Shown here in pieces: positions 1,876 through 39,595 of a stretch of 46,649 nucleotides of DNA. A program made the translations under genes and the position numbers. How positions within the stretch are numbered: the stretch's first letter is position 1; each line of letters opens with the position of its first letter. The DNA is taken from sequence record SRR31156797_3200; one strand, 5' to 3'. The notes beneath the pieces are model-generated. The model saw only the letters and a program-made list of their open reading frames with translations. It did not search any database and was not told the DNA's origin.

Positions 1876-1890
1876 AAAAGACATATAATC

Positions 1891-4011: not shown

Positions 4012-4618
4012 TGACCACCAGATAATTACAAGTGGTTTAAAAACACAACTGGAGAAAAACTTTCCAGGGTCTTCAATATTTGAGGCTAACACAACTACTG
4101 ATGCCTATGATGTTTTGCATAATGAAAACATTGAAATAGTTATTTCTGACCTTTCTGTAGATGAGTATTTAAGTGAACTTGATTTAATTACAAGAATAAA
4201 AGAAATTAATCCGGACATAAAACTAACTGTATTTAGCATGCATGCTAACGCCAGTATCATTCAAAATTTATTGAATAAAGGTGTAATGGGATATGTGGTT
4301 AAAACTTCTGATTCAAGTGAAATTATTAACGCCATCCATTCGATGCTAAAGGATGAAGTCTTTTTATGCAAGCATGCACAGCAAGCATTAAACGATGCTG
4401 AAGTCAGTGAACCCTCAAACCTAATTTTCACTCAAAGAGAAAAGCAAATTATAAAGCTTATTGTGGAAGGAAAAAAGACAGGTCAAATTGCCCGACAACT
4501 AAAAATTACAGTCAATACTGTTGAAAGCCACCGTAAGAATATTTATCAAAAAACCGGAACTAAGAACATGGCTGAGCTGGTAAAAATTGCACTTACACAA
4601 GGTATAGTGGAAAGTTAA
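3986..4618 (+). CDS. NarL/LuxR family response regulator
   Basis: REC domain (IDDH, ISD, VVK) plus LuxR HTH (TQREKQII...TVESHRKNI); overlaps the kinase stop. Confidence 0.92.
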   Translation: MAYSILLIDDHQIITSGLKTQLEKNFPGSSIFEANTTTDAYDVLHNENIEIVISDLSVDEYLSELDLITRIKEINPDIKLTVFSMHANASIIQNLLNKGVMGYVVKTSDSSEIINAIHSMLKDEVFLCKHAQQALNDAEVSEPSNLIFTQREKQIIKLIVEGKKTGQIARQLKITVNTVESHRKNIYQKTGTKNMAELVKIALTQGIVES

Positions 4619-7270: not shown

Positions 7271-7987
7271 TTACTTCTTACGAATATTTTTCATTATAAT
7301 TTCCACACTCTCTTCAACTGTATGTTGTGAGGTATCAATTTTAATTTCAGGATTTAGAGGCTCTTCATAGGGGTCATCTATACCTGTAAATTGTGTGATT
7401 TCTCCGGCACGTGCTTTTGCATACAATCCTTTTACATCGCGTTGTTCACAAACCTCTAATGGAGTTGCAACATGAACTTCGATAAAATCTTTACACTGGC
7501 TACGTACAAAATCGCGAGATTCACGATATGGTGATATAAATGAGGCTATTACTGTTACGCCATTTTCTTCAAGTTTAGACGCTAAGAATCCTACTCGTCG
7601 TACGTGTCTGTTACGCTCTTCCTTGCTAAAACCAGTTTTCGGAAAAATATTACGGATGATATCACCATCTAGCTCTTCAACCTTTATATTTTGTGCTTTC
7701 ATCTTCTTAAATAAGGCTTCAGCTAAGGTCGATTTTCCACTACCCGACAATCCGGTGAACCAAATAACTTTAGGCTGATACTCTTTTCGCCCAAAATTGA
7801 TTCTATTCCAGATTCTCTCATGACCGTAGAAAAACAGCAGTTTCAATGTAGCTTCAAATCCTCCCACGTAGGCTGCAAAATCCCAACGTTTCGTAAATAT
7901 ATAAACTAAAGCAGCTGTTGTAATTGTGGCTACAAATCGCCACGAAAGTGCTTTTACAATTGAACGACTCCGCGATTCTTTTATCAT
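7271..7987 (-). CDS. cysC: adenylyl-sulfate kinase with N-terminal DUF2061-like membrane domain
   Basis: WFTGLSGSGKST P-loop, LDGDIIR, RDVKGLY, FTGIDDPYE; N-terminal RSIVKALSWR...YGHERIW. Confidence 0.9.
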   Translation of the reverse strand: MIKESRSRSIVKALSWRFVATITTAALVYIFTKRWDFAAYVGGFEATLKLLFFYGHERIWNRINFGRKEYQPKVIWFTGLSGSGKSTLAEALFKKMKAQNIKVEELDGDIIRNIFPKTGFSKEERNRHVRRVGFLASKLEENGVTVIASFISPYRESRDFVRSQCKDFIEVHVATPLEVCEQRDVKGLYAKARAGEITQFTGIDDPYEEPLNPEIKIDTSQHTVEESVEIIMKNIRKK

Positions 7988-12492: not shown

Positions 12493-13386
12493 TTAAAAGT
12501 TTATTCTAATTTGTCCTGTCAGGTTCCAACCTTTTTCATTAGGATATTGGTACTCATATTTATTCGAATAAAGCACCATATAAAAAGTAACCTTTTTGTA
12601 TAATTTCACATATGCAAACGTTGATATACAATCCCCAAAAGAAAATCCTCCACCTACAATATCCTTATAATCTGTAAGCAGGCCTGCATAATAATATTTC
12701 CGTAGAGGTTCATTTCTGTATTTAGTGAAATCTAGAATTAGGTTTGGGCTTAAACTCCATGTATCAGTTAAATCGAATTTATACCTGGAATCAAAAGTAA
12801 ATTTTCTCTCTAATCTTAAAACATGAATATTTTCGATATCTGGTAATTCATCTTTAATCACTTCAGCATAGCTTAACCCAAAATGCAACTTCTTATATTG
12901 TAATCCCATTCCTATATTAAACCAATAATACTCTATATTATAATCAACAAAGTCTTCATTATTGCTATAATCACTAGCGATAGAGTTTACCTTAAAAGCT
13001 GCACCAAATGATAATTTAACAGGGTTTTCATCATATAAATAGGAATACCCTATTTCAACGTTATTTGAAACTTCTTTGATACTAGAAGTCAAAGATTGGG
13101 AATTAACAGATCCCCTTTCAAATAGTAATTGGACATTACTGTTTATTTTATCAAATGAAACAATTGAGTTCAATAATAAACTTCCGGAATTATAATCCGG
13201 TTTAATTTTGTTTGTTTGACCTATTACATCAAATTGTAATAGGCTATCTGCTTGAATCCATGCAGGATTATATAAATAGTTATTATAATATTCTAATCCA
13301 CTAAAATTAAAACTTCTTTGACTGAACCCCAAAGTAGTTGATAATAGAGTTATAACAATAAATAATTGAAATTTCTGGTTTTTCAT
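12493..13386 (-). CDS. PorP/SprF family T9SS outer-membrane beta-barrel (divergent)
   Basis: signal peptide ending S-Q, early YxxNPA motif, amphipathic beta strands, C-terminal Phe, ~300 aa. Confidence 0.7.
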   Translation of the reverse strand: MKNQKFQLFIVITLLSTTLGFSQRSFNFSGLEYYNNYLYNPAWIQADSLLQFDVIGQTNKIKPDYNSGSLLLNSIVSFDKINSNVQLLFERGSVNSQSLTSSIKEVSNNVEIGYSYLYDENPVKLSFGAAFKVNSIASDYSNNEDFVDYNIEYYWFNIGMGLQYKKLHFGLSYAEVIKDELPDIENIHVLRLERKFTFDSRYKFDLTDTWSLSPNLILDFTKYRNEPLRKYYYAGLLTDYKDIVGGGFSFGDCISTFAYVKLYKKVTFYMVLYSNKYEYQYPNEKGWNLTGQIRINF

Positions 13387-13511
13387 AAACTATCCTCATT
13401 TTTTAATTGACTATCATAGCTTTGCCTCAAAGATAAAAAAAAACTGAACTTAGCCCAAACCTGTAAATATCTTAGCAATTAAGGGATTGCGAAAAATTAA
13501 AACAAATGAAA

Positions 13512-13541
13512 AAAGGGGTTATACATTGATATAACCCCTTT
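13512..13541 (-). terminator. intrinsic terminator
   Basis: AAAGGGGTTATA-CATTGA-TATAACCCCTTT. Confidence 0.8.
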
Positions 13542-13563
13542 ATAAGATAATAATAAGCTTAAA

Positions 13564-13884
13564 TTATCGCTTTATTACTTTAACTCTTTTATAATTTACG
13601 ACTCCAAAAGTTACAACAGTCACTAAACCGCTTAGAAGATTATATTTAGTTTCAATAGTATAGGCATCAGCATTGATTTGTTTTGCCATTGCTTCAGTAT
13701 CTGTTTGAGTTACATTAATTCCCAAAACAAAAACATCACCGGCTTTTGCAACTACCTTATCTTTAGTAATTTCACCAAAAACATATCCGTTGTTTACATG
13801 GTTAGTATTCACATTAAACTTCTGCACCTGGCAACTCATCATAAAAATTGCCATTACTGTAATTAATAAAATGCTCTTTTTCAT
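13564..13884 (-). CDS. small lipoprotein (Bor-like)
   Basis: lipobox MMSC; C-terminal GLVTVVTFG hydrophobic hairpin resembles Bor/TRL-like lipoproteins. Confidence 0.65.
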   Translation of the reverse strand: MKKSILLITVMAIFMMSCQVQKFNVNTNHVNNGYVFGEITKDKVVAKAGDVFVLGINVTQTDTEAMAKQINADAYTIETKYNLLSGLVTVVTFGVVNYKRVKVIKR

Positions 13885-13952
13885 TTTGAATTTAATTATA
13901 AATTTTCCTACTCTTAAGCTTTTCGGAATCCGCTATTAACATTTATAGGGCG

Positions 13953-13960
13953 CAAATGTA
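13953..13960 (-). promoter_or_regulatory. -7 promoter element preceding a GC-enriched 5' leader
   Basis: TACATTTG on the minus strand; leader contains GCGGATTCCGAAAAGCTTAAGAGTAGGA. Confidence 0.55.
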
Positions 13961-14030
13961 CACAAGAATTATGGTTTTGATGTGAAAAATATGTGAACGG
14001 CTGTTGTTATTGTATAAACGGTAGATAAAA

Positions 14031-14426
14031 CTATTGTTTTAATTCTTCAAGTTTAAGCTCAAATGAATCAAGAATAGAAGAATCAATCAAAAAAGTTGTT
14101 TTGCCAATGTGTGCTATTTTTCTAAAAAGATATACTTGATCTCTTTGTCCCTGGAATAAGATTTTAGCATACTCTTTACTGGCCGGCTCTTTTACTTTTA
14201 AGGTTCGTCCATCAATTTCTCGAAACTCTACTTCTTTAAGAAATGAAATAATGGCGTCTACATCTTGCTTTTTCTTATAAACATGCACAGTTGCTTCATT
14301 ATCAGCTGAAATAAGTTCAATAGTTATGGCTGTAATTTTATCAGTTTCCCAACTGTGAATTCTGTTTTGTGCCAATCCAGATAGTACTGAACAACACATG
14401 ATTGAGATTAATACGAATGCTTTCAT
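14031..14426 (-). CDS. secreted hypothetical protein
   Basis: Sec signal ending GLA-Q. Confidence 0.7.
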   Translation of the reverse strand: MKAFVLISIMCCSVLSGLAQNRIHSWETDKITAITIELISADNEATVHVYKKKQDVDAIISFLKEVEFREIDGRTLKVKEPASKEYAKILFQGQRDQVYLFRKIAHIGKTTFLIDSSILDSFELKLEELKQ

Positions 14427-14526
14427 AATGGTATTTTTTAGTTAATAACTTAGGCCCTCATTATAAAGATGCAGTTGTAATTTAAATTCCATAAAAACCT
14501 GAAAAAGGTCAAAACTCATTTAAATT

Positions 14527-14562
14527 AAAAAAGGGTGCCCGGAATAATCCAGACACCCTTTT
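14527..14562 (-). terminator. intrinsic terminator
   Basis: AAAAGGGTG...CACCCTTTT stem. Confidence 0.75.
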
Positions 14563-14581
14563 ATTAGAAAATTTATATTCT

Positions 14582-14962
14582 CTACATTTCATTCAACTTA
14601 TTAATTCGGTCTTCGAGTTCAAGAATCCTATCTTCATATTTTTCATCATCAGCGCAGTCCACCAATCCATCCCATTTATTGGCCCATTCCATAAGTTGTT
14701 CACTGGCTTTTAGTATCTTTTGCAAGCTCTCAGTATCAGTTGGGTCAGCTTTTACTTTTTTGTATGTGTTTTCTATTTCAACGACCCATTTCTCGTAGTC
14801 GTCTAAAAATTTATCACATTCATTCTTTGTAGCATCATCAGCTTGTTCAACATTTTCTGTTTTCTCTTTTTCAGCATCTGCTTTTGCATCATCTTTTTTG
14901 GTAGCATCCGAACCGCAAGACATCATAAAAAGCATGCTAAGTATTAACATTAGATTTTTCAT
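14582..14962 (-). CDS. acidic helical lipoprotein, unknown function
   Basis: MKNLMLILSMLFMMS-C lipobox, K/D/E-rich linker, Cys pair; start set at ATG 14962. Confidence 0.75.
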   Translation of the reverse strand: MKNLMLILSMLFMMSCGSDATKKDDAKADAEKEKTENVEQADDATKNECDKFLDDYEKWVVEIENTYKKVKADPTDTESLQKILKASEQLMEWANKWDGLVDCADDEKYEDRILELEDRINKLNEM

Positions 14963-15068
14963 GTGCAATAATTTAAGTTAGTGATTCAGACAAATATACA
15001 AATAACATTGCATAAGTAGATATCTCTATCGTTTTCACGTTAAATTATATTAATTATGCTGCAAATAA

Positions 15069-15122: not shown

Positions 15123-18100
15123 TTAAAGTTTGACAATTTTTTGTACATAATGGTATTGCTCATTTTGAATAATGATCTGATAAATTCCATCACTTAATGA
15201 CTGGATATCTATAACATTTTTGAGTTGATCAGAGAATTGGGAAATAACAGTTTTTCCCTGCATATCTACAATGAGAATTTGATGTTTTCCAATTTCTTCA
15301 TTTAACTCCACATTTAATGTTCCTTCTGTTGGGTTTGGATAAATTTTCAGCTTGTTTTCTAAAATTGAATTTAGACCAACCATTGAAATATTAATAGTCA
15401 AATCTTGATCTATCACTTCAATTGAATCACTTATATTATCATATTGAGTATTTGAAATAGTGTAATTATATGTACCTGCCTCCATGATGTATGAAGCTTG
15501 ACCATTTTCATTTGTAACTGCATAATTGCCATCACAATCAACTAATGCACCATCTATCGGTTGGTCAAATGCTGTGACGACAAATGTAACATTGTATGTT
15601 GGCGTGGGATCAACACAACTAATTTCGGCAGTCCAACCTTGAGAATTGAACCAATTATCTGATTCAAAAACAAAAGTTAAAGCCCCTGTTGGATTTAAAG
15701 CTGTTAATGTTCCAAGGGGATCATAACCACAGTAATTACCCAAAAGATCAGACGAAGTAGATTCACCATTATATACTTTAAACTCGTCATAACAATCACC
15801 TGAGCCGCCCATTTCAACTCTAAATTCACTGAAATCGAACTGGATCATTTTTCCTTCCTCACCTGGAAAGAATGTCATTTGAATGTTGGAATTGTTAAAA
15901 TAAAAACCATCAGATCCTCCTTCATCATAGAACATACCACCACAGGTAGTAATTTCTCTATCGCTCATAAGATAATGTGGGAGTACCACAATAACGTCAT
16001 CTTTAATTAGTGGGTCGGAATCACCTAAAATATTAGAAGCAACTAATTGTATTGAATAAGATCCGGGATCATTAAACATTACAATTGGATTCTCAGCATA
16101 CATATCAGTACCATCAACAAAACTATAATCTAAACCTTCTGGTTCCGAAGCAATTACCCACTCCCAACCTGTAGGAGTATTTGTCGATAAATCTGTAATA
16201 TGAACTTTATCTCCAACATTTAATACGGTATAGTCGACGATAAAACCTGCTACCGGAACTGATGTAATTTCATTAATTGTAATAAAATCTGTTTTTGTAT
16301 TAATATTAGTTCCTTCTGCATTTGTAGCTTCTAACACAATTGTATATTGCCCGCTACTTTGAAATTTTACTTGTGGATTTTGACTTGATGATGTAGTTTC
16401 ATTTACAAAAACAAAATCAACACCTTCAGCACCTGGAGATACATTCCAATCCCATTCAGTTGGAGCATATTGACTTAAGTCTAAAAGCTCAACAACCTCT
16501 CCTTCTGTTGTTTCTGTCACTGATGCTTCAAATTCGGTAAGTGGAGCCTGTGGTTCAACAATAATTATTTTGTAATCTTCTACACCACCCGTACCAAATA
16601 ATAAACAAGGAACAATGTCAGAAGCCTCAGGTGCATTTCCTACTATAACCCGTAAATATTTCGGACCAGGTTCTACATCGGAAGGAATCGTAATGGTTCC
16701 GGCATCAGTAAAATTAATATCCTGTGCTTCAGTACCAAATACAATTTCACCTTCATCCTCAAAATCACCATCATAATTCCAATCAACGAAAACCCTGGCA
16801 CTTTTTATCATATTTTCACCACAAGTTCCTAATGACACACTAATATCATACGTTGACCCCAGCATATATTCATAAATTAAGTCTTCGTCGAGTGTAAAAT
16901 CATCGTATTTCCCACAATCTCCTTCTGTATTATTATGAAGTTGCCCAAGTGAAAACTCAACAAGATCACTTCCAAAACTGTAAATCGCACTAGATTCACA
17001 ATATTCAGGAACAAATCCCAAAAATAACCTTTTCTCTTCTTCAGCCCAATACATACTGTTTTCAATTCCAACAACCGATAACAAAACATCAACTGGTGTA
17101 CCTAGCAAAACAGAATCACTAACAGTTGCTTCAAAAATTGCTTCTACTGCTTCCCCAGCACTCAGTTCTCCAATAGAAAATTCAGTATTTGAAAATGTCA
17201 TATGTTCACCATTATTCAACATTCTAATGGATGAGTTTACATTTGAAATAGCTGCATGCCCTGTATTTGTTATTACAACTTTAATATTTGCTGTTTCTCC
17301 GGGATCAAGAAATCCATTTCCAGAATTATCATCAATATATAGATTTACAATACTCAATTCAGGTGCATTTAAATTCAATTCTACTAACGAGGTCCACATA
17401 TAACTATCCCTATCGTCTCCAGTAATTACTATCGAAAAATCAACAGTGTGTTGGTCAGGGATACTATCATCAATTGTGAATGAAAATGCATCCGATATAG
17501 TTAAAGAATCTCCGGCATTAATAGTGCCTATATTTGATACGCTATCATTTACTGTAATAAAACTATCTGAAGTGCGAAGCTTAGCTATAATATTTTGAGC
17601 ATCGAATCCACTATTACTTTGTGCAAAATTTTTAAATTTAACCTCCATGCCTATTGTCGAACCATAATCTGGAGAATCCGAGAAAGAATATTCTTTTACT
17701 CCAATGTATGGCGTATCATTCAACACGACAATTGTACCTTCATATTTGATTTTATTGTGACCCGTAATTGTAATAGTAATGGGATCAGTGTTGTTTATTG
17801 GTTCAAAAGTTTCTACTAACGCAACACCACTTTCATCAGTAACGGTTCGACCAATCATCTGAGAATTTTGAAGTAAAGCAACACGAGAACCTTCTAATCC
17901 AGTATTAACTTCAATAAAACTGCTCTCCATATTAACAGATTCAGGATAACTAACTGCAAAGGCTGTTGGTTGTGCAGTCCAGATATCCATACTTGGGTCA
18001 CCAAATAAAGTTAATTCATATGCACACCATCGAATGGCTCCTTCATGACTATTAATAAATGCTATATTGTCGCTTTTTGAATCCGCATTAGCTTCTCCAA

Positions 18101-19781
18101 TTATGGTTATATCTTCCCCGAAAATGGCATCGAAAAATTGACGGTCAAAATATTGAGAAGCCCCATCTGTACTTTCAGGCATACCCCAACCATAGCGAGA
18201 ATTGTGCACACATGCCACAGCTCCATTCTCAAAACTAGTAAACTCTTCAGCAAAGCAATCCAAATTCCAATATTCATTATCAAATGCTCCACAATAACAA
18301 CCTTGTGAATAATCAATTACAAATCCTCTATCAATTCCATTATTCTGAAAATTCTCAACAGTAATTTCATCAGTTGTCATGGTCAAATGATAAGTTACAT
18401 CGCAATGACCGAGATGATTTAAAAGATTTATACCTTGATTATTAAATTGATCAAAAATATCTTGATGACTCCAATCTCCATCCCGTTCATACATTCGTGT
18501 AGTTGTAAAATTATCTGATATACCTACAGTAGAATATCCATATGTGTCAGCGCCATCAGCTATTTCATCTTTGTAATCGCCTCCCCAGGTTGGATGATAC
18601 CATAAGAGTTCACCTAACATCAAAGACTTTTCAATATCTTCAACAACTGGCTGATCCTGATATAGAATAACCTTATTAATTAAATTTGAGAGTTCTTCCA
18701 AATTATCAACACACATGCGACCAACAAATACTTCGGCAAACATATCTTCTTCTCCAACTTCGCCAAAAACTCCATCTCCATTATTATCCCATGTTCCATC
18801 TAAGCAGGAATAATACATATCGGCAGGTATAAAATCGTCATAAACACTATAGGCGTTTCCGTACATACCCCGTGTTGGAACAATATTATTTCCACCCTCG
18901 TTACCATCAGCATCGCCACCTAAGACGACATATGTTAAGTTCTTATTTTGATAATAATCTATGATACAATTGCGTATCTTTTCCGGATCATCTTGTCCTT
19001 CGTATTCTGTGTAGATCTCATTTACATCTTTCAGTTCAACAATATACCCAGTTGAAGTTTTGAAATTAACATAATCATCAAAACCAGCCATAAGCTCCTG
19101 ACTAGTAATAATTAAAATATCAACTTCATCATTTGTCTTAGTATTATCTGGATAATTATAACGATCCATATATTCCGGATTATCAACTGCCTTTTCAACT
19201 CTTTTAAGAATTGATGGGCTATTCCTCAAATTATCAATCGATTGAATTCCTTTTTTCGATTCAGTGGTCTCAATTATTATAGTTATCGATTGAATTAATT
19301 CAACTTTTTTATCAGAAGGATGAAATATTAGCGGACAAATTGTAAAACCCCCAATAGCATGACCTGACATATATTGGGTAATCTTATTTTCAATCATATT
19401 TTCAGGATATTTGCTCTTTTGACTGTAGATGTCATGGTTAGGCTTTACAATGTATGGTTCTTTTAATTTTTGGGAAAGTGGAAATTGTCTGCCTGCGGGA
19501 GAAATAACAATATCCTCAAAAGTTTTTAAATAAGAAATATGCTCTACCTTAATGCTTGTGATTTCATGTCCGGCAGGAATAAGCACTTCTGCTGCAAAAT
19601 GTGGCATTGAAGGAGCACCCTCAGGTCCATAATTTCGACAATTTTCGTATTGAATGGTAGTGTATTGACCTTCCTTTACAAATTTTGGTTTTTCAAATGT
19701 GTACGTTATTTTTATATTGTCGGCAAATAAATGGATTGACAAAAAAAACAACAGTCCAAAAAATAAAAATTTTGATTTCAT
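15123..19781 (-). CDS. gingipain-like C25 cysteine peptidase with propeptide, Ig-like, GEVED, two PKD, CUB-like domains and T9SS type A C-terminal domain
   Basis: YVVLGGD, VGRM, NHLGH (His), SQGC (Cys), LFGDP; GGVEDY; PKD motifs; FYDEGG...GW.A CUB-like; KIYPNP...KIVKL tail. Confidence 0.9.
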   Translation of the reverse strand: MKSKFLFFGLLFFLSIHLFADNIKITYTFEKPKFVKEGQYTTIQYENCRNYGPEGAPSMPHFAAEVLIPAGHEITSIKVEHISYLKTFEDIVISPAGRQFPLSQKLKEPYIVKPNHDIYSQKSKYPENMIENKITQYMSGHAIGGFTICPLIFHPSDKKVELIQSITIIIETTESKKGIQSIDNLRNSPSILKRVEKAVDNPEYMDRYNYPDNTKTNDEVDILIITSQELMAGFDDYVNFKTSTGYIVELKDVNEIYTEYEGQDDPEKIRNCIIDYYQNKNLTYVVLGGDADGNEGGNNIVPTRGMYGNAYSVYDDFIPADMYYSCLDGTWDNNGDGVFGEVGEEDMFAEVFVGRMCVDNLEELSNLINKVILYQDQPVVEDIEKSLMLGELLWYHPTWGGDYKDEIADGADTYGYSTVGISDNFTTTRMYERDGDWSHQDIFDQFNNQGINLLNHLGHCDVTYHLTMTTDEITVENFQNNGIDRGFVIDYSQGCYCGAFDNEYWNLDCFAEEFTSFENGAVACVHNSRYGWGMPESTDGASQYFDRQFFDAIFGEDITIIGEANADSKSDNIAFINSHEGAIRWCAYELTLFGDPSMDIWTAQPTAFAVSYPESVNMESSFIEVNTGLEGSRVALLQNSQMIGRTVTDESGVALVETFEPINNTDPITITITGHNKIKYEGTIVVLNDTPYIGVKEYSFSDSPDYGSTIGMEVKFKNFAQSNSGFDAQNIIAKLRTSDSFITVNDSVSNIGTINAGDSLTISDAFSFTIDDSIPDQHTVDFSIVITGDDRDSYMWTSLVELNLNAPELSIVNLYIDDNSGNGFLDPGETANIKVVITNTGHAAISNVNSSIRMLNNGEHMTFSNTEFSIGELSAGEAVEAIFEATVSDSVLLGTPVDVLLSVVGIENSMYWAEEEKRLFLGFVPEYCESSAIYSFGSDLVEFSLGQLHNNTEGDCGKYDDFTLDEDLIYEYMLGSTYDISVSLGTCGENMIKSARVFVDWNYDGDFEDEGEIVFGTEAQDINFTDAGTITIPSDVEPGPKYLRVIVGNAPEASDIVPCLLFGTGGVEDYKIIIVEPQAPLTEFEASVTETTEGEVVELLDLSQYAPTEWDWNVSPGAEGVDFVFVNETTSSSQNPQVKFQSSGQYTIVLEATNAEGTNINTKTDFITINEITSVPVAGFIVDYTVLNVGDKVHITDLSTNTPTGWEWVIASEPEGLDYSFVDGTDMYAENPIVMFNDPGSYSIQLVASNILGDSDPLIKDDVIVVLPHYLMSDREITTCGGMFYDEGGSDGFYFNNSNIQMTFFPGEEGKMIQFDFSEFRVEMGGSGDCYDEFKVYNGESTSSDLLGNYCGYDPLGTLTALNPTGALTFVFESDNWFNSQGWTAEISCVDPTPTYNVTFVVTAFDQPIDGALVDCDGNYAVTNENGQASYIMEAGTYNYTISNTQYDNISDSIEVIDQDLTINISMVGLNSILENKLKIYPNPTEGTLNVELNEEIGKHQILIVDMQGKTVISQFSDQLKNVIDIQSLSDGIYQIIIQNEQYHYVQKIVKL

Positions 19782-28812: not shown

Positions 28813-28971
28813 TCATTATTTTTGTTCAACCGAAATATTTCAAGCATTTCATATATTACATCACATCTAAATTATTCCACTTAAAAACCTGGTGCCTAAA
28901 AATTTAATATTGTTGTGATTTCTGCTATTATTTTTTTTTGTATCTTGTTTATCCAACTATTTTTTAACCAG

Positions 28972-31900
28972 ATGAGTAAAGCGCTAATTTCAGTTTCTTT
29001 TCTTTTTGCGATTCTGTTGGGAATTTGCAACAATAGTATTGCGCAAATAAAAACTCACGGCCTTCCTTACATAAAAAACTATAGTATTGATGATTACGAA
29101 GGAAATGCATTTGGTGCCACCCAGAACTGGTACATTTATCAGGACAGTAAAGGAATGATGTATTTTGCCAACTCAGGCGGAATATTATATTTCGATGGTG
29201 TTCACTGGAGTTTCTTAAGAGTAAATGAAACATCTACATTTCGTTCGATAAAAGGAACAACTGAAGATCAAATATTTGCAGGAGGAAAAGGAGAATTTGG
29301 ATATCTCACTAACGATAGTTTAGGTAATATTAAATATCAATCCTTGCTTAACAAGGTCCCTGAAAAAAATCGAGATTTCACAGACATATGGAATATATAT
29401 ACTATTGATGACAAAGTCATTTTTGAAACAGCCAATAAGCTTTTTATTTACGAAAATGATTCAATTAGAATAATACATACTGGAGGAAGCTTAATAAATA
29501 CTTTCAAGATAAATGATGAACTATATTTGGTGGATTTAGATGATGGATTAAAAAAACTATCCAAAAGCAAGCTAACCTCTCTTTTTAACCATAAAATATT
29601 TGACTCATATCTTTTTAAAATAAATGGGTTTAACAATCCTTTGATTGTGTCAAGGAACCATGGGTTTTATGAAATTGATGATATGAAACTAACAAAATGG
29701 AATGTTGACTCTGAAAATATAATTATCAATAAAAGACCTTATTGCGGCATAAAAATAGACGAGGAACATATTGCCATTGGAACCCAACTTGGCGGAATCT
29801 TCATTATCAATAACAAAGGAAAAGTAAAACAAGTAATTAATAAAGAAAATGGCCTTCAGGCTAATACTGTATATAATCTATATGTTGACCAAAACAAAAA
29901 CTTATGGGCTGCACTTGGCAATGGCATTAGTTATATCAAAATCAACTCACCATTCACTTATTTTAATCCATTCTTAAAAATACCCAGAAAGAACTACGAT
30001 GTTCAAATAGCAAGTAATACTATATATTTTAGCAATGAGATAGGAATACATTACAAACCCATTAAATCTGTTGATAATAATCTTAAATCTATCAATTTTG
30101 AGTCTCTCGAAGGCATTTCAGGATTATCCTACAAACTAATAAAGCATAAGGATAAAATAATTTCAACAAATAGTAATGGTATATATCTGATTAAGAAAAA
30201 TAAGGTTTTGTCGCATGCATTTAATGGCATACACTTTTGGGATATACAAAAAATCCCAGGCTTCGAAAACAAGTATTTTGGACTGTCTAACAATGGTTTA
30301 TACAAGTTTGAGGTTACTGGAAATAAAATAACGAAACCTCGAAAAGTTGAAAACTATGACAAATCCATGAGGTTCTCTGTTATAGAAAATGACACATCTA
30401 TATGGACAACAGATGAAGTTGATGGATTGAAAAGACTAGTCCTCTCAAAAGACCTTGAAATAGTTGACACAGTCATTTCTATTAATTTTGGTGAAGAAAA
30501 CATGCTAGTTTATCCATTCATTTTGAACAATCAAATTTATTCTTCATCATTCAGCGACCTATATAAAATCAAATCAAATCAATATGTAAAAGCTGATGAG
30601 CTGAAAGAAAAATACAATCTGGAAGACGTGGTATATTATTTCACCGAAGATAATTGGAATAGACTATGGATCCAAAGTGATACTAAGGTGAAATGGATAT
30701 CATCTGACGATTTAGAAATTTCTAAACCCTTTAAACCCTTCGACGGTGAAAACATTTCCAGAATGAGTGTTATTTCCTTAAAAGACGTATATTTCCCAAC
30801 AGATAAATATGTTTTACATTACGATCCCACCTATCCATTTTATGAAGATTCCAATTTCAACATTGTTTTTCATTCCATAAAAAACATTAATAATGATTCT
30901 GTCATTGTCGGAATGTACACTCACCTCTTTCAAGATAGTCTAAATCTAAATTACTCAGATTCAATATTAATCTTACCATACGATAAAAACAATCTGAGAT
31001 TTTCATATGCGGCGACTTATTACGAAAAACCTGAAGAAACAAGATACCAAATATGGTTGGAAGGGTTTGAGAACAACAATATGAATTGGACCACAGAAAC
31101 CAAAAAGGACTATACTAATTTAAGACCAGGCAATTATGTTTTCCATGTAAAAGCCAAAAACATCTACGATAATATAAGTAAAGAAAAATCAATAGCTTTT
31201 AAAATCAGACCACCTTTTTATCTTTCTTTTTGGGCATACTTAATCTACAGTATAGTCGGAGCATATATGCTATATTTAATTCTCATTTTATATACCCGAC
31301 AATTAAAAGCGCGCAATACCAAATTAGAAGAAATGGTTAGGGAGCGCACAATGGAAATTGAAACCCAAAATGAAGAGATTCTTTCCCAATCTGAACAATT
31401 AATGGAATATAATGAAGAGCTTAGAAAACTTTCAGTTGTGGCCAGCGAAGTAAATAATGCTGTATTTATTACTGACCATATGGGAAACATTGAATGGGTG
31501 AATGAAGGATTTCAAAGGGTTTATGGACACTCGTTTTATGATGTAAAACAAAAAAACAGGGCTTCATTATTTAGTCATTCCAACCCAAAATATATAGCGA
31601 ATATGTTCAAAGAAGTTCGTGAAAGCAAGCAAGCTAATACATTTGAACAAGAAGTAATAACAAAAGATGGCAAAATAACCTATGTGAATACAACACTTAC
31701 CCCATTATTAAACCCGGAAAATGAAGTAGAAAAAATTGTAGCCATTGACTCCGATATTACCAAATTAAAACAAGCAGAAAATGAGATACTGCAGCAAAAA
31801 GAAGAAATACTCAACCAAAATGAGGAACTAGATAAGCACAGGCTACATTTGGAAGACCTTGTTGATGAAAGAACCAATGAACTTAAAAAAGCTCTTGCCA

Positions 31901-32604
31901 AATCAGAAGAAAGTGACAGATTAAAGTCATCTTTTCTCATGAATATGTCGCATGAAATTCGCACACCAATGAATGCCATTGTTGGATTTTGTGAAATACT
32001 TGAAACTGAAGAAAATCCCGAAAATTGCCAAGAGTACATCAAGCAAATTACATCAAATTCAAATACATTACTTCAACTAATAGATAACATTATTAACCTC
32101 TCAAGATTAGAAAGTGAAAGCTATGAACTAACGATATCAGAATTTGATTTGAATGAATTAGTCAAACAATTGTACAATGAACATATTGACGAGTTCAAAC
32201 AAAAGAACCTAAAATTAACAATGTCAAAATCGCAACTTGAACCAATGATTGTCATTACCGACCAACAATTGTTGTATCTTACATTTAATCAATTAATTCA
32301 AAACGCACTTAAATATACTCCGGAAGGAGAGGTTACATTTGGCTATGAAATGAAACTAATAAATGGCCAAATTCAATTGATATGCTACGTACAAGACACT
32401 GGAATCGGCATGAGTAAAGATGACCAAAACAATGTATTTAAACGCTTTACAAAAATCGAAGATAATAATCAAAAATTATATCGTGGAGCAGGTATAGGAT
32501 TAGCACTCTGCCAAAGAACAATAAAACTACTCTCGGGGGATATATGGATTGAATCAGAAATAGAAGTAGGGACCACTGTCAATTTCACTTTTTCAAGCTA
32601 CTAA
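28972..32604 (+). CDS. membrane histidine kinase with beta-propeller and Y_Y_Y periplasmic sensor, PAS, HisKA, HATPase
   Basis: signal ending SIA-Q, propeller repeats, YTNLRPGNYVFHVKA, TM, PAS (IEWVNEGF), SHEIRTPMN, GAGIGL; no REC or AraC domain. Confidence 0.9.
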   Translation: MSKALISVSFLFAILLGICNNSIAQIKTHGLPYIKNYSIDDYEGNAFGATQNWYIYQDSKGMMYFANSGGILYFDGVHWSFLRVNETSTFRSIKGTTEDQIFAGGKGEFGYLTNDSLGNIKYQSLLNKVPEKNRDFTDIWNIYTIDDKVIFETANKLFIYENDSIRIIHTGGSLINTFKINDELYLVDLDDGLKKLSKSKLTSLFNHKIFDSYLFKINGFNNPLIVSRNHGFYEIDDMKLTKWNVDSENIIINKRPYCGIKIDEEHIAIGTQLGGIFIINNKGKVKQVINKENGLQANTVYNLYVDQNKNLWAALGNGISYIKINSPFTYFNPFLKIPRKNYDVQIASNTIYFSNEIGIHYKPIKSVDNNLKSINFESLEGISGLSYKLIKHKDKIISTNSNGIYLIKKNKVLSHAFNGIHFWDIQKIPGFENKYFGLSNNGLYKFEVTGNKITKPRKVENYDKSMRFSVIENDTSIWTTDEVDGLKRLVLSKDLEIVDTVISINFGEENMLVYPFILNNQIYSSSFSDLYKIKSNQYVKADELKEKYNLEDVVYYFTEDNWNRLWIQSDTKVKWISSDDLEISKPFKPFDGENISRMSVISLKDVYFPTDKYVLHYDPTYPFYEDSNFNIVFHSIKNINNDSVIVGMYTHLFQDSLNLNYSDSILILPYDKNNLRFSYAATYYEKPEETRYQIWLEGFENNNMNWTTETKKDYTNLRPGNYVFHVKAKNIYDNISKEKSIAFKIRPPFYLSFWAYLIYSIVGAYMLYLILILYTRQLKARNTKLEEMVRERTMEIETQNEEILSQSEQLMEYNEELRKLSVVASEVNNAVFITDHMGNIEWVNEGFQRVYGHSFYDVKQKNRASLFSHSNPKYIANMFKEVRESKQANTFEQEVITKDGKITYVNTTLTPLLNPENEVEKIVAIDSDITKLKQAENEILQQKEEILNQNEELDKHRLHLEDLVDERTNELKKALAKSEESDRLKSSFLMNMSHEIRTPMNAIVGFCEILETEENPENCQEYIKQITSNSNTLLQLIDNIINLSRLESESYELTISEFDLNELVKQLYNEHIDEFKQKNLKLTMSKSQLEPMIVITDQQLLYLTFNQLIQNALKYTPEGEVTFGYEMKLINGQIQLICYVQDTGIGMSKDDQNNVFKRFTKIEDNNQKLYRGAGIGLALCQRTIKLLSGDIWIESEIEVGTTVNFTFSSY

Positions 32605-32707: not shown

Positions 32708-32715
32708 TAACTTTG
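32708..32715 (+). promoter_or_regulatory. -7 promoter element of the four-gene cassette
   Basis: TAACTTTG 46 nt before ATG 32762. Confidence 0.55.
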
Positions 32716-32761: not shown

Positions 32762-33436
32762 ATGTCTGAAATTACTGAAATTAAAGATGCTGTAGATGCC
32801 TGGAATCAAAATCGCAGCAATGCCAATAAAGCAAAAGCATTACTTGGCAAGGGATCAATTTTTAATATCACTCGTAATGATTTTAAAAAATGGAGTGAAA
32901 TAAAAAACAAACCAAATTGGATTTATGCTTATGGTGGCGATTTTAAGGGCATATTTAAATTTATTTTAATCGATAGTGAATCAGCTCAAAAACCACTGGA
33001 TGAAAGTACGCTTCCTTACACATTTGTAAAAGAATTCAACCGTAATTACAATGTGGATGGTTTAGATTTCTTAGCTAATCCTAAATCCGGAAATATTGAA
33101 GTAAGTGATGCACTCAAAAGAGTAATGCGGTGGGATATTATGATGGATTCATGGATTGAAGAACAAACGTCAACAAACAATACTAAAACTGGTGTTCCTA
33201 AAGCCTATAAAATTCCTTTTGAAAGTATTAAAGACTGTTTTATCAATTCAAATGTTGATGAAGTTATTGTTGTATTAGCTTTAAAACCAAATGATGACCC
33301 ATCAATTCCAGAAACAAATTATCTTGCTGATTTAACACTGTGGTCAACATCCAAATCTAAAGATAGTGGTGATCTAAAAGTTCAAAATATTGTTGCCCCT
33401 TGTCCGCCTTATTGTGATTTGCCCACATGGCCTTAA
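32762..33436 (+). CDS. cytoplasmic hypothetical protein with C-terminal PCPPYC motif
   Basis: 224 aa, no signal peptide or TM; ends NIVAPCPPYCDLPTWP; first gene of a tight operon. Confidence 0.8.
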   Translation: MSEITEIKDAVDAWNQNRSNANKAKALLGKGSIFNITRNDFKKWSEIKNKPNWIYAYGGDFKGIFKFILIDSESAQKPLDESTLPYTFVKEFNRNYNVDGLDFLANPKSGNIEVSDALKRVMRWDIMMDSWIEEQTSTNNTKTGVPKAYKIPFESIKDCFINSNVDEVIVVLALKPNDDPSIPETNYLADLTLWSTSKSKDSGDLKVQNIVAPCPPYCDLPTWP

Positions 33437-33447
33437 AAAATTAGCTT

Positions 33448-34098
33448 ATGAGTTTTATTATGCTTGCCACCATTTATGCCATTTTATTTTTTCAGGTCTT
33501 AGGAATACTTTTTTTTGCTTTCAATCGTAAAAGACTTTCATTAGAATTTAAACTTCTCGGAATATTTATTCTGGGAAGTTTTATTTTCCAAATATTTAAC
33601 ATTTATCTTTCAGATTATAACCTTTTCCTTGTTCCATTGTATGGGTTATTTGAATTTATATTGTTTTCAATATTATATGCAAAACTCATTTCAGTTAAAA
33701 ACAAAGCATTATTGGGTATCATAGCATTTATCATTTCCATATTATTAATTATCGAAGGAATTAATTCATATGTGAACCAAAACCCAGTTTCCTTCTTCTC
33801 TTATGGGAAAATAACAAGTAACTTAGCTATAATTACTTATGGTGCATTTTACATTGTTAGCACATTGCGCGATAAATCTAAAAAAATTGAGCCATACAAA
33901 ATAAACCTTAGCTTTATTATAATTGCTTTTTATGTAACAACGCTTTTAAACTTCTTAGCTATTAATTTCCTGGTAAACAACAGTTTGCAAATCGTAGGTT
34001 ATTTTTGGCAATTTCATGCATTTATTAATGTATTATTTTATGGTATTTTAACATTTCTATTATGGAAACATGGCAAAAACCCGAAGCCTTTGCATTAG
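33448..34098 (+). CDS. polytopic (~7 TM) membrane protein, putative kinase co-sensor
   Basis: seven hydrophobic segments counted by eye; overlaps the kinase start by 37 nt. Confidence 0.8.
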   Translation: MSFIMLATIYAILFFQVLGILFFAFNRKRLSLEFKLLGIFILGSFIFQIFNIYLSDYNLFLVPLYGLFEFILFSILYAKLISVKNKALLGIIAFIISILLIIEGINSYVNQNPVSFFSYGKITSNLAIITYGAFYIVSTLRDKSKKIEPYKINLSFIIIAFYVTTLLNFLAINFLVNNSLQIVGYFWQFHAFINVLFYGILTFLLWKHGKNPKPLH

Positions 34099-34841
34099 GG
34101 CTTGCAATTGTTTTTATCGTTTTTATTGCACTAACTACGTTCATTGTAGTTTTTATGCGATTGTATTTTAAACGCTTGGCTCATGAGCAAAATCAGCAGA
34201 TGGAAATGAATGTAAAACATCAAAAAGAGCTGCTTGAAAAAAGCGTAATTACACAGGAACGTGAGCGCAAACGCATAGCTTCTGAGCTACATGATGGCCT
34301 AATCTCAAAACTCAACACCATAGTTTTAATGCTTTCTACAGGCATGCAGGAAAACATCCAATCTTCGTCAGAAATGCTATCCGAGAGTATTCAACTGGCG
34401 CGAAAAATATCCCATGACTTAACCCCACCAATGCTTGAAGAAACAGATTTACAAGAACTGATCTCAGGATTTCTATATCCACTTCAAAGTTCATTTAAAA
34501 TTGAATTCAATAAATCAATCCGCAAGTCCACTGAATTAAAAGTTGAACCTAAACTTCAAATATTCAGGATATTTCAAGAGTGTATCAACAATATTATGAA
34601 ACATGCTGAGGCTTCTCAAATAATTGTTGACCTTAAACTAACTTCGAATTATTTATTACTTAAAGTGACAGACAATGGTAAAGGATTCGATCTTGAAAAG
34701 CAGAAAAACGGATTGGGATTAAATAATATGTTAATTCGCACTCAATTTTTAAATGGTTCATACAAAACAAAAACTGCCATCAATAAAGGAACAACTTTAA
34801 TTTTTGGATTTAATTTAGCAAATTTACATAATGGAAAGTAA
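34062..34841 (+). CDS. single-TM HisKA_3 histidine kinase lacking a sensor domain
   Basis: one N-terminal TM, QERERKRIASELHD, ECINNIMKHA, DNGKGF, GLGL. Confidence 0.92.
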   Translation: METWQKPEAFALGLAIVFIVFIALTTFIVVFMRLYFKRLAHEQNQQMEMNVKHQKELLEKSVITQERERKRIASELHDGLISKLNTIVLMLSTGMQENIQSSSEMLSESIQLARKISHDLTPPMLEETDLQELISGFLYPLQSSFKIEFNKSIRKSTELKVEPKLQIFRIFQECINNIMKHAEASQIIVDLKLTSNYLLLKVTDNGKGFDLEKQKNGLGLNNMLIRTQFLNGSYKTKTAINKGTTLIFGFNLANLHNGK

Positions 34842-35520
34842 TGTGATTAAATTGGCCATTGTTGATGATGAGGAGCTGGTCGTTAGGCTTTTAGAACAAT
34901 TTCTATCCAATATAGAAAACTATAGGGTAGTTATTACTGCGTATGATGGCTCTGAATTTATTGAAAAAATAAAAACTGCTGAAGAAATTCCGGACATAGC
35001 GCTCATTGATTTGCGCATGAAAAATATGGATGGAATTGAAACTGTGACAGAGCTAAAAAAGGACTTTCCAGATGTAAAAGTCATTACCATCTCATCGCAT
35101 TACAAAACCTCATTCATGGGTTATATGATGAAGGTAGGTGTCAACGCTTTCATACCCAAAGGCATTGCGCCTCAATATGTTATAGAAGTTATAGAATCTG
35201 TAAACGATAAAGGATATTATTTCACCCGTGAACAAGTTGACATTATGCGAAATCAAATTTCAAGTACAGCACCTGTTCCAGATTTAGACGACAATCCTCT
35301 TTCAGAAAGAGAAATAGAGGTTTTAGAATTATTATGTCACCAACAAACTGCACCTGAAATAGCTAAAAACCTCAACATAACACGAAAAACGGTGGAAGGA
35401 CACAGAGCCAGATTATACGTTAAAACAGGTGTGAAAAATTTAGCCGGATTGGTAATTTATGCCATACAAAATAACCTTGTTGATGTTAAAAATATAAATA
35501 TTCACAATACAGGGAAATAA
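34831..35520 (+). CDS. NarL/LuxR family response regulator
   Basis: VDDE, LIDLRM, IPK; LSEREIEVL...TVEGHR HTH. Confidence 0.93.
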   Translation: MESNVIKLAIVDDEELVVRLLEQFLSNIENYRVVITAYDGSEFIEKIKTAEEIPDIALIDLRMKNMDGIETVTELKKDFPDVKVITISSHYKTSFMGYMMKVGVNAFIPKGIAPQYVIEVIESVNDKGYYFTREQVDIMRNQISSTAPVPDLDDNPLSEREIEVLELLCHQQTAPEIAKNLNITRKTVEGHRARLYVKTGVKNLAGLVIYAIQNNLVDVKNINIHNTGK

Positions 35521-35573: not shown

Positions 35574-35616
35574 TAGGGAAAAATACCTGTTAGGTCAAAA
35601 CAGGGATTTACCCTCT
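35574..35616. promoter_or_regulatory. candidate NarL/LuxR binding boxes
   Basis: TAGGGAAAAATACCTG and CAGGGATTTACCCTCT imperfect palindromes. Confidence 0.45.
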
Positions 35617-35680: not shown

Positions 35681-36106
35681 ATGGAAGAACTAATGATAAA
35701 GGAAAAAAACGATGTTTTGTTGGCTAATTATTTTATTGGTTTAAAACAGCCTTTACGCAATAAGTTTATTATTAGCCTTTCAGCAAACACCCCCAATGAG
35801 AGTCTAAATGGTGAAACAGAAATTATAGTAAAAACAACTCCACCAATCAATATAGCGAACAGCCTCAAAGGCAATTACAAATATGTTTGTATTGAGCCTG
35901 AAGCATGTCATATTTTAATAACAGCGAAAGGTTATCCCAAGTATAGCTATGTCCACGATTCGGGCATTGAAAGGCCTGCCGAACCAATTTTTCATTTTCG
36001 AATGATTTTATCTGAGGATTGGAAAAGTGGTATCGCCAACTATGACTATAAGGATAAACAGGGACAGTGGCACAGCATTACGGATGCCCCCGTAAAAAGA
36101 ATATAA
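35681..36106 (+). CDS. hypothetical protein
   Basis: 141 aa ORF with ATG start, beta-rich appearance, no signal peptide. Confidence 0.65.
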   Translation: MEELMIKEKNDVLLANYFIGLKQPLRNKFIISLSANTPNESLNGETEIIVKTTPPINIANSLKGNYKYVCIEPEACHILITAKGYPKYSYVHDSGIERPAEPIFHFRMILSEDWKSGIANYDYKDKQGQWHSITDAPVKRI

Positions 36107-37600: not shown

Positions 37601-37644
37601 TCTCCTTTCAGCGCTAAATTTTGTGCTGAAAGGAGATTCTTTAT
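37601..37644 (+). terminator. hairpin/terminator after rsgA
   Basis: TCTCCTTTCAGCGC / GTGCTGAAAGGAGA 14-bp stem, then TTCTTTAT. Confidence 0.65.
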
Positions 37645-37664
37645 ATCAATTAACAATAAAGGCC

Positions 37665-38219
37665 ATGCAAAATATCAAACAGCAAATCTTCGATTACAAA
37701 TACAATGGAAACTACCTAAACAATTACAAACAGCTAATTTCTATAATGGAAGAAGTTACTGAACACATAGCAAAGCCGGGCATGAAAACTATGGCTATCA
37801 ACATGATTCTGGAAAGTCGAAACCATAGAATGGGAATGCACTATTCCAAAGGTTATGAGATGGCAAATGAATTACAAAATCAAATTAAACAAACGACCTA
37901 TTCCCTCATCCAGGCACTTCCTGAAAAACTACAACCGGCATTGCATGTTTTAACTGAAAAATTGCTTATCAAGCAACAAGATATTGAGGAACAAAAATAT
38001 AAGGAATGGATCCGATTTGCTGAACCATGGCATTTTTTCATTATTGAAAAACAGCACAGCTCAAAACTTTTTCGTTTAGACTGGTTTCAAAACACCCTTA
38101 TTGAAATTCCAACAGATGAATATTTCAATAAGCGTTTAAAAAGCAATACACAGGGAATATATGAGACAATATATGCTTCAATAAATAGTTACCATATTAA
38201 AAACTGGTTAAACAAATGA
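37665..38219 (+). CDS. hypothetical protein
   Basis: ATG 37665 preferred because GTG 37623 lies inside the hairpin; ATGA overlap with the next gene. Confidence 0.65.
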   Translation: MQNIKQQIFDYKYNGNYLNNYKQLISIMEEVTEHIAKPGMKTMAINMILESRNHRMGMHYSKGYEMANELQNQIKQTTYSLIQALPEKLQPALHVLTEKLLIKQQDIEEQKYKEWIRFAEPWHFFIIEKQHSSKLFRLDWFQNTLIEIPTDEYFNKRLKSNTQGIYETIYASINSYHIKNWLNK

Positions 38220-38728
38220 AACAGATAATATTAATTGTACTTGCTTTATTATGCTTGCAATCTTTTGGTTGCAAATGTAAACATCAGGGTAATTTGGATA
38301 GTTTAAGAGCAAAAAGTTACAGATATGCTGATATAGTGTTTTACGGTAAACTAATTGAAATTGACACCATAAGCTTTACATTTAAATACAGAATTAAGGA
38401 GCTTTTTAAAGGAGATACGAAAGATAGCACAATAACAGGGAAGTACTTTAACAGCTGTTCCTCATTTCCCCAAAGACAAGGAAACTGGATTGTTTATGCA
38501 ACTTATGAGTCTAATGACACCATTAACATTAGTCAATGTAATGCATCAAGAAACGAAAACTTTCCTTATTGCCCTAATTGCCCATTTATTCCGCATCCAC
38601 CACCACCCGGAGCTACAAAACAGCAATTAAAAGAGATTGAAAATTATTACAATACTCTTGAATCCAGAGCGATTGAAGAATTCTTCAATGAACTAGACAT
38701 ACTGCGCAAATGGAGTACAATAAATTAG
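38216..38728 (+). CDS. secreted TIMP/NTR-like protein
   Basis: signal peptide followed by C-K-C, ADIVFYGK strand, further Cys residues, polyproline tract. Confidence 0.6.
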   Translation: MKQIILIVLALLCLQSFGCKCKHQGNLDSLRAKSYRYADIVFYGKLIEIDTISFTFKYRIKELFKGDTKDSTITGKYFNSCSSFPQRQGNWIVYATYESNDTINISQCNASRNENFPYCPNCPFIPHPPPPGATKQQLKEIENYYNTLESRAIEEFFNELDILRKWSTIN

Positions 38729-39058
38729 TCAATCTAATTTCCACGCCTCATTCAACCTCATACTCAACTTATCCTCTGCAGTGGCATGGTATCCATCAGC
38801 CGACATGATTTTATCAATCACCTTTTTACACTTTTTACGTGTAGTTTCATCTGATCCGGCGATGGTTTCAATGGCCTTATCCAGATCCTCGTCCTTATGA
38901 GCTAGAAGATCATCCTTTTTAATGCCAAATTTCTCTGCCCTATTTAATTCTTTACCAGACACCAATTTATCAGCATAAATCATAGCATAGGCTATACGTG
39001 CAATTGCCTTTTGCTCCTCCTCTTGTAATTTTGAAAAGTCGCTTTTGAAAAGTCCCAT
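38729..39058 (-). CDS. TerB-like protein
   Basis: duplicated M..AD......E motif (MIYADKLVSGKE, MSADGYHATAE). Confidence 0.7.
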   Translation of the reverse strand: MGLFKSDFSKLQEEEQKAIARIAYAMIYADKLVSGKELNRAEKFGIKKDDLLAHKDEDLDKAIETIAGSDETTRKKCKKVIDKIMSADGYHATAEDKLSMRLNEAWKLD

Positions 39059-39223
39059 GAGTTTTCAATTTTATTCTATAAAGGTAACTCAATATCAAAA
39101 ACATTACAATAATGTCATATTATTTTTGGGAATTTAGATGTTCTTCAGACTTAAAAATCAAGTCTTTTTACTTATTGATCAATGGAGAAAACACCTTAAA
39201 TTTACAAGTCAATAATACCAACA

Positions 39224-39595
39224 ATGATTTCTTATAGCGTTAATGAAAATACGGGAATAGTATATGCGAAATTTTCTGGAACCATTACATTCGAGGAGCT
39301 ATTTATGCATGTTTCAATAAACGAACAGAATAAAAATTTTCCAAGTAAGCTCAAACTTTTATCTGATGCGACTAATGCCCGTTTATCCATAAGACCTCCT
39401 GAATTAAAACAAATTAAAAATCAATTAGCCATTACGCTAGAGGAGCTTTATTACTTATATGATGCCTTTGTAGTGAGCAAACCAATGGAGACAGCTATAA
39501 CAACTTTATACATGGAAATTGCCAGGCTAAAAAAATACGAGTTTAAAGTATTTTCAAGCATGGAGGCTGCTGAGCACTGGTTATCAAGAAAATAG
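39224..39595 (+). CDS. STAS/SpoIIAA-like small protein
   Basis: FSGTIT, LSD, AFVV and C-terminal F...EAAEHWL pattern. Confidence 0.65.
   Translation: MISYSVNENTGIVYAKFSGTITFEELFMHVSINEQNKNFPSKLKLLSDATNARLSIRPPELKQIKNQLAITLEELYYLYDAFVVSKPMETAITTLYMEIARLKKYEFKVFSSMEAAEHWLSRK

Follow-up and report, generated by a model that had tools for sequence, protein, structure and literature searches.

A seven-helix membrane protein and a variable soluble partner accompany sensor-less histidine kinases across Bacteroidota

How does a histidine kinase that carries no sensor domain receive its cue? The question is raised by four adjacent genes in a 46,649-nucleotide (nt) stretch of DNA from sequence record SRR31156797_3200 (this whole stretch is termed the window herein), which encode a soluble protein (gene 1), a seven-helix membrane protein (gene 2, the 7TM protein), the kinase (gene 3) and a NarL/LuxR-type response regulator (gene 4). 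A first-pass annotation, made from the letters alone, described the genes as tightly coupled and proposed a split receptor, in which the 7TM protein senses and the first gene, a CPPxC protein, serves as signal source, redox input or modulator. The coordinates of the open reading frames (ORFs) agree with the coupling, with a gap of 11 nt between genes 1 and 2 and overlaps of 37 nt (genes 2 and 3) and 11 nt (genes 3 and 4), and the kinase indeed starts with METWQKPE followed by one hydrophobic helix, that is, with about 8 residues before a single transmembrane (TM) helix and no input domain. We conclude that the cassette is a real, widespread and undescribed variant of accessory-sensor two-component signaling. 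A split receptor is the best reading of it, because the genes co-occur in a conserved manner, the input proteins match no Pfam or NCBIfam family and the 7TM protein is receptor-like in shape; a sensing role for the latter is retained here, and the CPPxC motif as a redox input is not.

A search with the kinase returned 14 loci, nine of which (42 to 45% identity, from Kordia and other Bacteroidota) carried the same four genes, while five (30 to 33% identity) had large sensor kinases and no 7TM gene. A 38-row profile of the 7TM protein, with seven candidates scored per genome, found a match at E ≤ 1e-5 in 133 of 401 Bacteroidia genomes (132 of 400 without the unpublished genome G458). From the 255 profile matches, 30 returned loci were read together with 80 more stretches picked down the list, and 146 loci, including the window, were kept after removal of 11 duplicates and 6 loci without a 7TM gene. 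Members of the gene-1 family lay upstream in 136 of these, a count that is partly circular because the hidden Markov model (HMM) was iterated on the same loci with a loose cutoff; the kinase was present in 132, all four genes in 117, and the regulator in 127, which is an undercount because the locus flanks span only 1.5 to 2.5 kb. Among the 101 loci outside the 7TM profile (L061 to L162), gene 1 was directly upstream in 93, a HisKA_3 kinase downstream in 95, a regulator present in 93 and the full set in 84. This gene order is far beyond chance, and it is kept on four plasmid records. The HMM co-occurrence check proposed with the first-pass annotation thus came out in its favor, as did its mention of similar gene orders in Bacteroidota: the two upstream genes accompany a single-TM HisKA_3 kinase and a NarL-type regulator across the phylum. 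No description of the four-gene cassette was found in the openly licensed literature.

Several loci departed from the common layout. Two or three divergent tandem 7TM genes followed one gene-1 homolog in L040, L115, L119 and L148, and the 7TM gene stood without an adjoining gene-1 homolog or kinase in L045, L106 and L141. At the 3' ends of L035, L039, L050 and L051, the gene behind the 7TM gene encodes a one-TM protein that is longer and has a cytoplasmic domain inserted; it is truncated by the end of the locus and was excluded from the kinase count. The plasmid records (L015, L016, L017 and L018) came from Fulvitalea, Persicobacter and Aureibacter. The closest named relative of gene 2 was from a Salinivirgaceae bacterium (73%), and of 540 candidates from metagenomes, scanned with the alignment of close 7TM proteins, none was confirmed.

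Genes 3 and 4 form a HisKA_3/NarL two-component pair, with an H-box in HisKA_3 (E = 2.8e-7, His77) and an HATPase_c domain (E = 1.1e-9) in the kinase, and a receiver Asp in Response_reg (E = 9e-23, Asp60 and Lys110) and a GerE helix-turn-helix (E = 4.6e-14) in the regulator, all above Pfam cutoffs. One TM helix, preceded by a median of 12 residues, was observed in 124 of the 126 cassette kinases with a parsable H-box (6 others were dropped). Sensor-less and co-encoded with an extra membrane protein, the kinase fits the accessory-protein-dependent kind by gene content.

The extra membrane protein had been read as an approximately 7-TM protein, and its AlphaFold model shows seven helices, with a predicted local distance difference test score (pLDDT) of 93.4. 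The positive-inside rule, applied to Lys and Arg on the loops, placed the N terminus outside in 144 of the 146 7TM members. Foldseek returned G protein-coupled receptors (GPCRs) and rhodopsins (best E = 0.02), and VIA returned a designed GPCR-like fold (Z 16.4, root mean square deviation [rmsd] 3.4 over 200 residues) and, foremost among natural proteins, GPRC5D (Z 13.8, rmsd 4.0 over 199 residues); overall, structural matches had Z of 12 to 16 and rmsd of 3.4 to 4.5 over about 200 residues at 4 to 15% identity. As modeled, the protein has a GPCR/rhodopsin-like fold in shape, not as homology. By its sequence it is not a microbial rhodopsin: where a retinal-binding lysine was sought, helix 180-210 has Lys at its cytoplasmic end only, with no conserved Lys column there. 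The 146 rows likewise held no invariant catalytic set (no Cys column, and one His column at 50%). The best-kept polar or aromatic positions were N58 (90%), E69 (63%) and Y161 (79%), of which N58 and E69 sit near the outer end of helix 3. No longer, fused 7TM forms were found among 8000 candidates of 409 to 2000 amino acids (aa), which is a weak negative.

Neither gene 1 nor gene 2 matched a Pfam or NCBIfam family, and their alignments gave no consistent match in either database (at most one member per family), so that membership in a characterized unrelated family, which would have spoken against the proposal, was not found there. A sequence search for solved-structure relatives found none. 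The gene-1 model (pLDDT 89.5) runs helix-strand-helix-strand-strand-strand, twice over. An HMM built from 46 small CPxxC proteins matched its C-terminal half (E = 3e-8; hhalign 97%) and, weakly, its N-terminal half (E = 1e-3), with hhalign giving 35% for the small family against the N-terminal repeat and 5.7% for the N-terminal against the C-terminal repeat; the predicted two-repeat organization is read mainly from how helices and strands follow one another, the N-terminal repeat being only weakly similar in sequence. Foldseek against PDB and BFVD yielded no match to the fold at E ≤ 0.001. The best structural match with VIA, considered also with a thioredoxin-like fold in mind, was to sliding-clamp-type domains (Z 5.1, rmsd 3.8 over 125 residues), which we took as a common arrangement and not a fold match. 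The atlas look-alikes were Bacteroidota clusters, with gene-1 recognition below threshold. A two-repeat profile retrieved 629 clusters at 50% identity, and lengths across the gene-1 family ranged from 102 to 346 aa.

The feature that first drew attention to gene 1 was its PCPPYC ending. The motif is present at residues 213 to 218, six residues short of the stop, and its cysteines (Cys214 and Cys218) are spaced C-x3-C. Family-wide, CPxxC occurred in 96 of 136 gene-1 proteins. Of the 150 best two-repeat relatives, 145 had a Cys-free PxPP tail, 2 had CPxxC and 2 had a single Cys, a tally biased by a profile built mostly from Cys-free rows. The kinase tree gave the same answer a second time and independently of that profile: the window fell in a 12-row clade (support 99/90) whose other 11 loci all had a two-repeat, Cys-free gene 1 (six further Kordia-type loci were omitted as redundant, and another tree gave an 18-row clade at 0.92). 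Constant in all gene-1 proteins was D/N-x3-P-x-P, then Pro or Cys. Judged from these alignments, the cysteine pair is an exception in the two-repeat subfamily and dispensable in the clade of the window, and gene 1, with a conserved pair in 2 of 150 relatives and 1 of 12 clade loci, is unlikely to be a thiol-redox sensor; CPPxC as a defining feature was accordingly given up. A second peculiarity of this copy is a set of polar residues, His55, Asp75 and Asp209, kept in 96%, 98% and 93% of the two-repeat subfamily and here replaced by Tyr, Ala and Asn; P0005, one of the five closest relatives, has all the same changes. These residues might make up a site for binding or catalysis, one that the window copy would lack.

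Export or lipoprotein signals were predicted in 36 of 136 gene-1 proteins, compared with 1 of 127 regulators as a control (38 had been flagged, 19 with a lipobox, and 2 were dropped as artefacts of over-long ORFs), and an export-type N terminus was seen in 15 of the 150 two-repeat relatives. The gene-1 domain thus appears to work outside the cytoplasm in many members, and the signals suggest the outer face of the 7TM protein as its place of action.

The two input genes are, by pairwise identity, the fastest-diverging part of the cassette. Median identity among eight Kordia-type loci was 39% for gene 1, 71% for the 7TM protein, 91% for the kinase N terminus, 85% for the kinase core and 93% for the regulator; the corresponding values for 42 other close pairs were 46%, 54%, 60%, 67% and 73.5%. 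L026 and L028 differ in both input genes (30 and 33%, versus 94% for the regulator), and other pairs swap one alone. In partial distance correlations across 94 loci, gene 1 followed the 7TM protein most (0.20, versus 0.07, 0.00 and 0.10), and this correlation was the largest in 292 of 300 subsamples. Tandem divergent gene-1 copies were observed in L002 (2811-4375), L003 (2775-4365) and L008 (2880-4375), where the second copy is in two ORFs.

Dyad counting identified an enriched palindrome, (C/A)GGTA-N4-TACCTG, upstream of gene 1. A matrix trained on these same upstream regions, with the window excluded, found sites in 43 of 135 of them (shuffles, 0 to 2), so that about a third of loci have the palindrome 80 to 300 nt ahead of gene 1. 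In 80 wider loci, 38 of 40 strong sites lay outside ORFs, although ORFs cover 79% of the DNA, and in Kordia algicida OT-1 all 7 exact matches were intergenic (reversed-pattern control, 1). Dyad counting downstream of the regulators gave no enriched motif, and the matrix found 8 of 82 there. The window has no site before gene 1. Its cassette-linked site lies 53 nt past the regulator and 107 nt before a DUF1842 gene; a score of 14 was reached in 3 of 2000 shuffles of this gap, and the arrangement with a weaker second site recurs in L029. Two sites in the window scored at least 14 (shuffle mean 0.34; 9 of 200 shuffles reached 2), and the strongest match (1830-1845; core score 17.2, where a shuffled window would give 0.1 by expectation) is located elsewhere. 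We regard the palindrome as a candidate binding site of the cassette regulator. Neighbors of the motif in Kordia algicida OT-1 (L163 to L169) included a LodA-family oxidase, a sulfatase, a LamG/FAD protein and, next to a cassette, Collar-domain proteins; DUF2589 genes come after a motif site in L016.

From these data we propose a three-part sensor composed of the gene-1 partner, the 7TM bundle and the kinase helix, in which the partner sets specificity via its proline tail; we give this model about an even chance. The separate 7TM and gene-1 chains would supply the sensor that the kinase is without, with the single kinase helix packing on the 7TM bundle within the inner membrane. The gene-1 protein would be a folded co-receptor that docks, probably at the outer face, by its conserved C-terminal D/N-x3-P-x-P-P segment and determines which cue is read, most likely an extracytoplasmic one. 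A change in the bundle would then switch autophosphorylation of His77, and the phosphorylated regulator would bind (C/A)GGTA-N4-TACCTG, here turning on the DUF1842 gene. The cysteine pair may be an optional clamp on the tail and would not be the sensing chemistry.

Several observations weigh against this model. The main difficulty is that most gene-1 proteins have no signal peptide although the domain works outside the cytoplasm in many members: the window copy lacks one, as do 100 of 136 relatives, for which no route outward is known. The export label, moreover, switches 14 to 16 times on the trees (starred branches force at least 7), which is hard to reconcile with one fixed compartment. Gene 1 and the 7TM protein do not always co-vary (39% versus 83% identity for L004/L006; 81% versus 54% for L140/L153), their partial correlation is small and of a size that gene adjacency could produce, and 7TM distances follow the regulator (0.29) more than the kinase N terminus (0.18). 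Variability of the 7TM protein is no greater in its outer than in its inner half (9 of 24 close pairs), and for helical bundles a Z of about 13 counts as borderline. As for the output, the strongest site in the window precedes another HisKA_3 (716 aa)/NarL pair (1861-4618, + strand), which may reflect cross-regulation or a site common to related regulators, and the exact palindrome was no commoner genome-wide in 18 genomes with a 7TM match (23 hits, control 15) than in 18 without (19, control 16).

The same variability could mean that gene 1 is itself the signal. The gene-1 protein, whole or as a C-terminal piece, would be the ligand of the 7TM protein in the same or neighboring cells, presented through lipoprotein display, secretion, leakage or lysis, and would bring about allele-specific induction that depends on density or damage; we consider this possible but doubtful. 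Gene 1 is the most variable gene, with divergent duplicates in 3 of 9 Kordia-type loci, exported forms exist, and roughly one locus in three has the palindrome ahead of gene 1, where positive feedback would require it. Collar-domain proteins, a LodA-family oxidase and DUF1842 are among the neighbors of the sites, and DUF1842 genes are described as quorum-induced in Chromobacterium in PMC12114271. In Kordia algicida, where four 7TM matches were found, protease release depends on density and no AHL (N-acyl homoserine lactone) was detected, according to PMC3117869. On the other side, the cassette has no processing or export gene, and gene 1 encodes a well-folded 224-aa domain pair, which exceeds porin passage. 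A folded protein of this length, with no processing or export gene beside it, is also a poor fit to a classical short-peptide precursor. The missing site upstream of gene 1 in the window and the imperfect co-variation of gene-1 and 7TM alleles also count against a self or kin signal, and an S8 protease like AlpA1 (PMC10565126) was found in 0 of 13 proteins flanking K. algicida and neighboring sites. The broadest form of the idea, a Bacteroidota-wide cell-to-cell or self-recognition system with a new-fold protein ligand, a stand-alone GPCR-shaped receptor, sideways signaling to a one-helix kinase and allele-specific pairs, would supply the non-AHL density signal of bacteria such as Kordia algicida, and we hold it to be slightly more doubtful still.

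Alternatively, the kinase helix would itself sense the state of the membrane, and the regulator-induced upstream proteins would push the kinase toward phosphatase activity. The layout of saePQRS is alike, and there a lipoprotein and a membrane protein induce SaeS phosphatase activity (PMC5083920); LiaF is likewise presented as a negative regulator in PMC3543457, and the candidate site before gene 1 is compatible with negative feedback. A receptor-shaped bundle, the polar N58 and E69 and the rapid turnover of alleles suit ligand recognition better, however, and among Kordia loci the TM region of the kinase (91%) is more conserved than both upstream proteins, so that we regard such a brake as unlikely. 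Redox or metal sensing by the CPPxC cysteines is highly improbable, for all the frequency of CPxxC family-wide and the coincidence of the cysteine pair in the window with the loss of His55, Asp75 and Asp209, because the cysteines are absent in most close relatives, in the biased profile tally as in the kinase clade, and those present are spaced C-x3-C.

TABLE 1 Features of the cassette and its immediate surroundings in the window
Feature	Position	Strand	Description
Bacteroidota -7 promoter-like box TAACTTTG	32708..32715	+	46 nt before gene 1; consensus match
Gene 1	32762..33436	+	224 aa; soluble; two predicted alpha/beta repeats; signal peptide absent; tail N209-x3-PCPPYC; belongs to the two-repeat subfamily of a family that is not catalogued
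Gene 2	33448..34098	+	216 aa; stand-alone membrane protein with seven helices; predicted topology N-out/C-in; shaped like a GPCR or rhodopsin; retinal lysine absent
Gene 3	34062..34841	+	259 aa; histidine kinase without a sensor domain; 8 external residues, then a single TM helix, a coiled coil, HisKA_3 and HATPase_c
Gene 4	34831..35520	+	229 aa; NarL/LuxR-type response regulator, REC and GerE HTH
Candidate regulator site TAGGGA-AAAA-TACCTG	35574..35616 (main site 35574-35589)	+	core score 14.1; followed 27 nt later by a weaker second site
DUF1842 protein gene, candidate target	35681..36106	+	PF08896, E = 1.2e-15; outside the conserved cassette

The box before gene 1 (Table 1) had been noted as the promoter of the unit. 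It does match TAnnTTTG, which we take to be the Bacteroidota -7 consensus; such matches occur in the window at chance level (77 found versus 74 expected), and no -33 element to pair with it was present where one was looked for there, so that the box is plausible as a promoter by position alone. Upstream, a 1229-aa kinase (28915-32604, +), which lacks a receiver and combines propeller, Y_Y_Y, PAS, HisKA and HATPase domains, ends 157 nt before gene 1; it was rejected as part of the unit, since no such gene lay upstream in the loci read. Elsewhere, the window encodes a 1552-aa C25 (gingipain-family) peptidase with GEVED, PKD and CUB domains and a type IX secretion tail (15123-19781, -), an adenylylsulphate kinase with an N-terminal DUF2061 membrane segment (7271-7987, -), and runs of small-to-medium ORFs with no Pfam match at E ≤ 1e-4 (12493-14968, -, and 37623-39595). 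Among sequencing runs, with small shares left aside, the stretch was present in its possible source only.

About a third of the sampled Bacteroidia genomes have the cassette, often in several copies, and both of its input proteins lie outside Pfam and NCBIfam. If the proposed three-part sensor is correct, bacteria would here use a GPCR-shaped protein, encoded on its own, to drive a histidine kinase in trans; should gene 1 prove to be a signal, the cassette would bear on AHL-free density sensing in Bacteroidota. The window copy contributes the two-repeat form, the dispensability of the cysteines in its clade and a candidate operator, and it points to the D/N-x3-PxPP tail, not the cysteines, as the feature that matters.

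Among known systems, SaePQRS, LiaFSR/VraTSR and UhpABC resemble the cassette in that their kinases depend on separate membrane partners, and agr resembles it in its pattern of variation; the cassette belongs to none of them. SaePQRS of Staphylococcus aureus, as described in PMC5083920, is likewise a four-gene operon with an extra soluble protein or lipoprotein, an extra membrane protein, a sensor-domain-less kinase and a regulator, under an autoregulated promoter; there, however, SaeS has two TM helices with a short linker and its own sensing, SaeQ has four helices and SaeP is a lipoprotein. In the window, a one-TM kinase stands beside a seven-helix, GPCR-shaped partner, gene 1 has no signal peptide and output is of the HisKA_3/NarL type; no sequence family is held in common, and the input alleles turn over fast. 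LiaFSR/VraTSR similarly combine a HisKA_3 kinase and a NarL-type regulator that depend on a separate membrane protein (in part from PMC3543457). The window kinase matches LiaS at E = 1.1e-21, below cutoff, genes 1 and 2 match no LiaF or VraT family, and the cassette differs further in its fourth, variable protein and its Gram-negative host. UhpABC also feeds a HisKA_3 kinase from a separate polytopic membrane receptor, but UhpC is an MFS-type transporter homolog and UhpB is itself polytopic, whereas in the cassette a seven-helix bundle accompanies a kinase with a single helix, and a soluble partner is added; matches of its kinase to UhpB and of its regulator to UhpA stay below cutoff. With agr the cassette shares four genes, hypervariable inputs beside a conserved output and possible autoregulation; the diffusible agr signal induces its own operon, and the candidate site that would serve this in the cassette is present before gene 1 in 43 of 135 loci, though not in the window. 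The agr precursor is about 45 aa, its membrane peptidase has an invariant catalytic Cys/His, its receptor is fused to the kinase and its regulator is of the LytTR type; in contrast, the cassette has neither a short precursor nor an AgrB-type peptidase signature, its receptor is unfused and its regulator carries GerE. Finally, gene 2 differs from sensory rhodopsins and GPCRs in having no helix-7 retinal lysine and 4 to 15% identity in structural alignments; the likeness is in fold alone, and consists of an N-out seven-helix bundle predicted, as in sensory rhodopsin-transducer pairs, to signal sideways to a separate helix.

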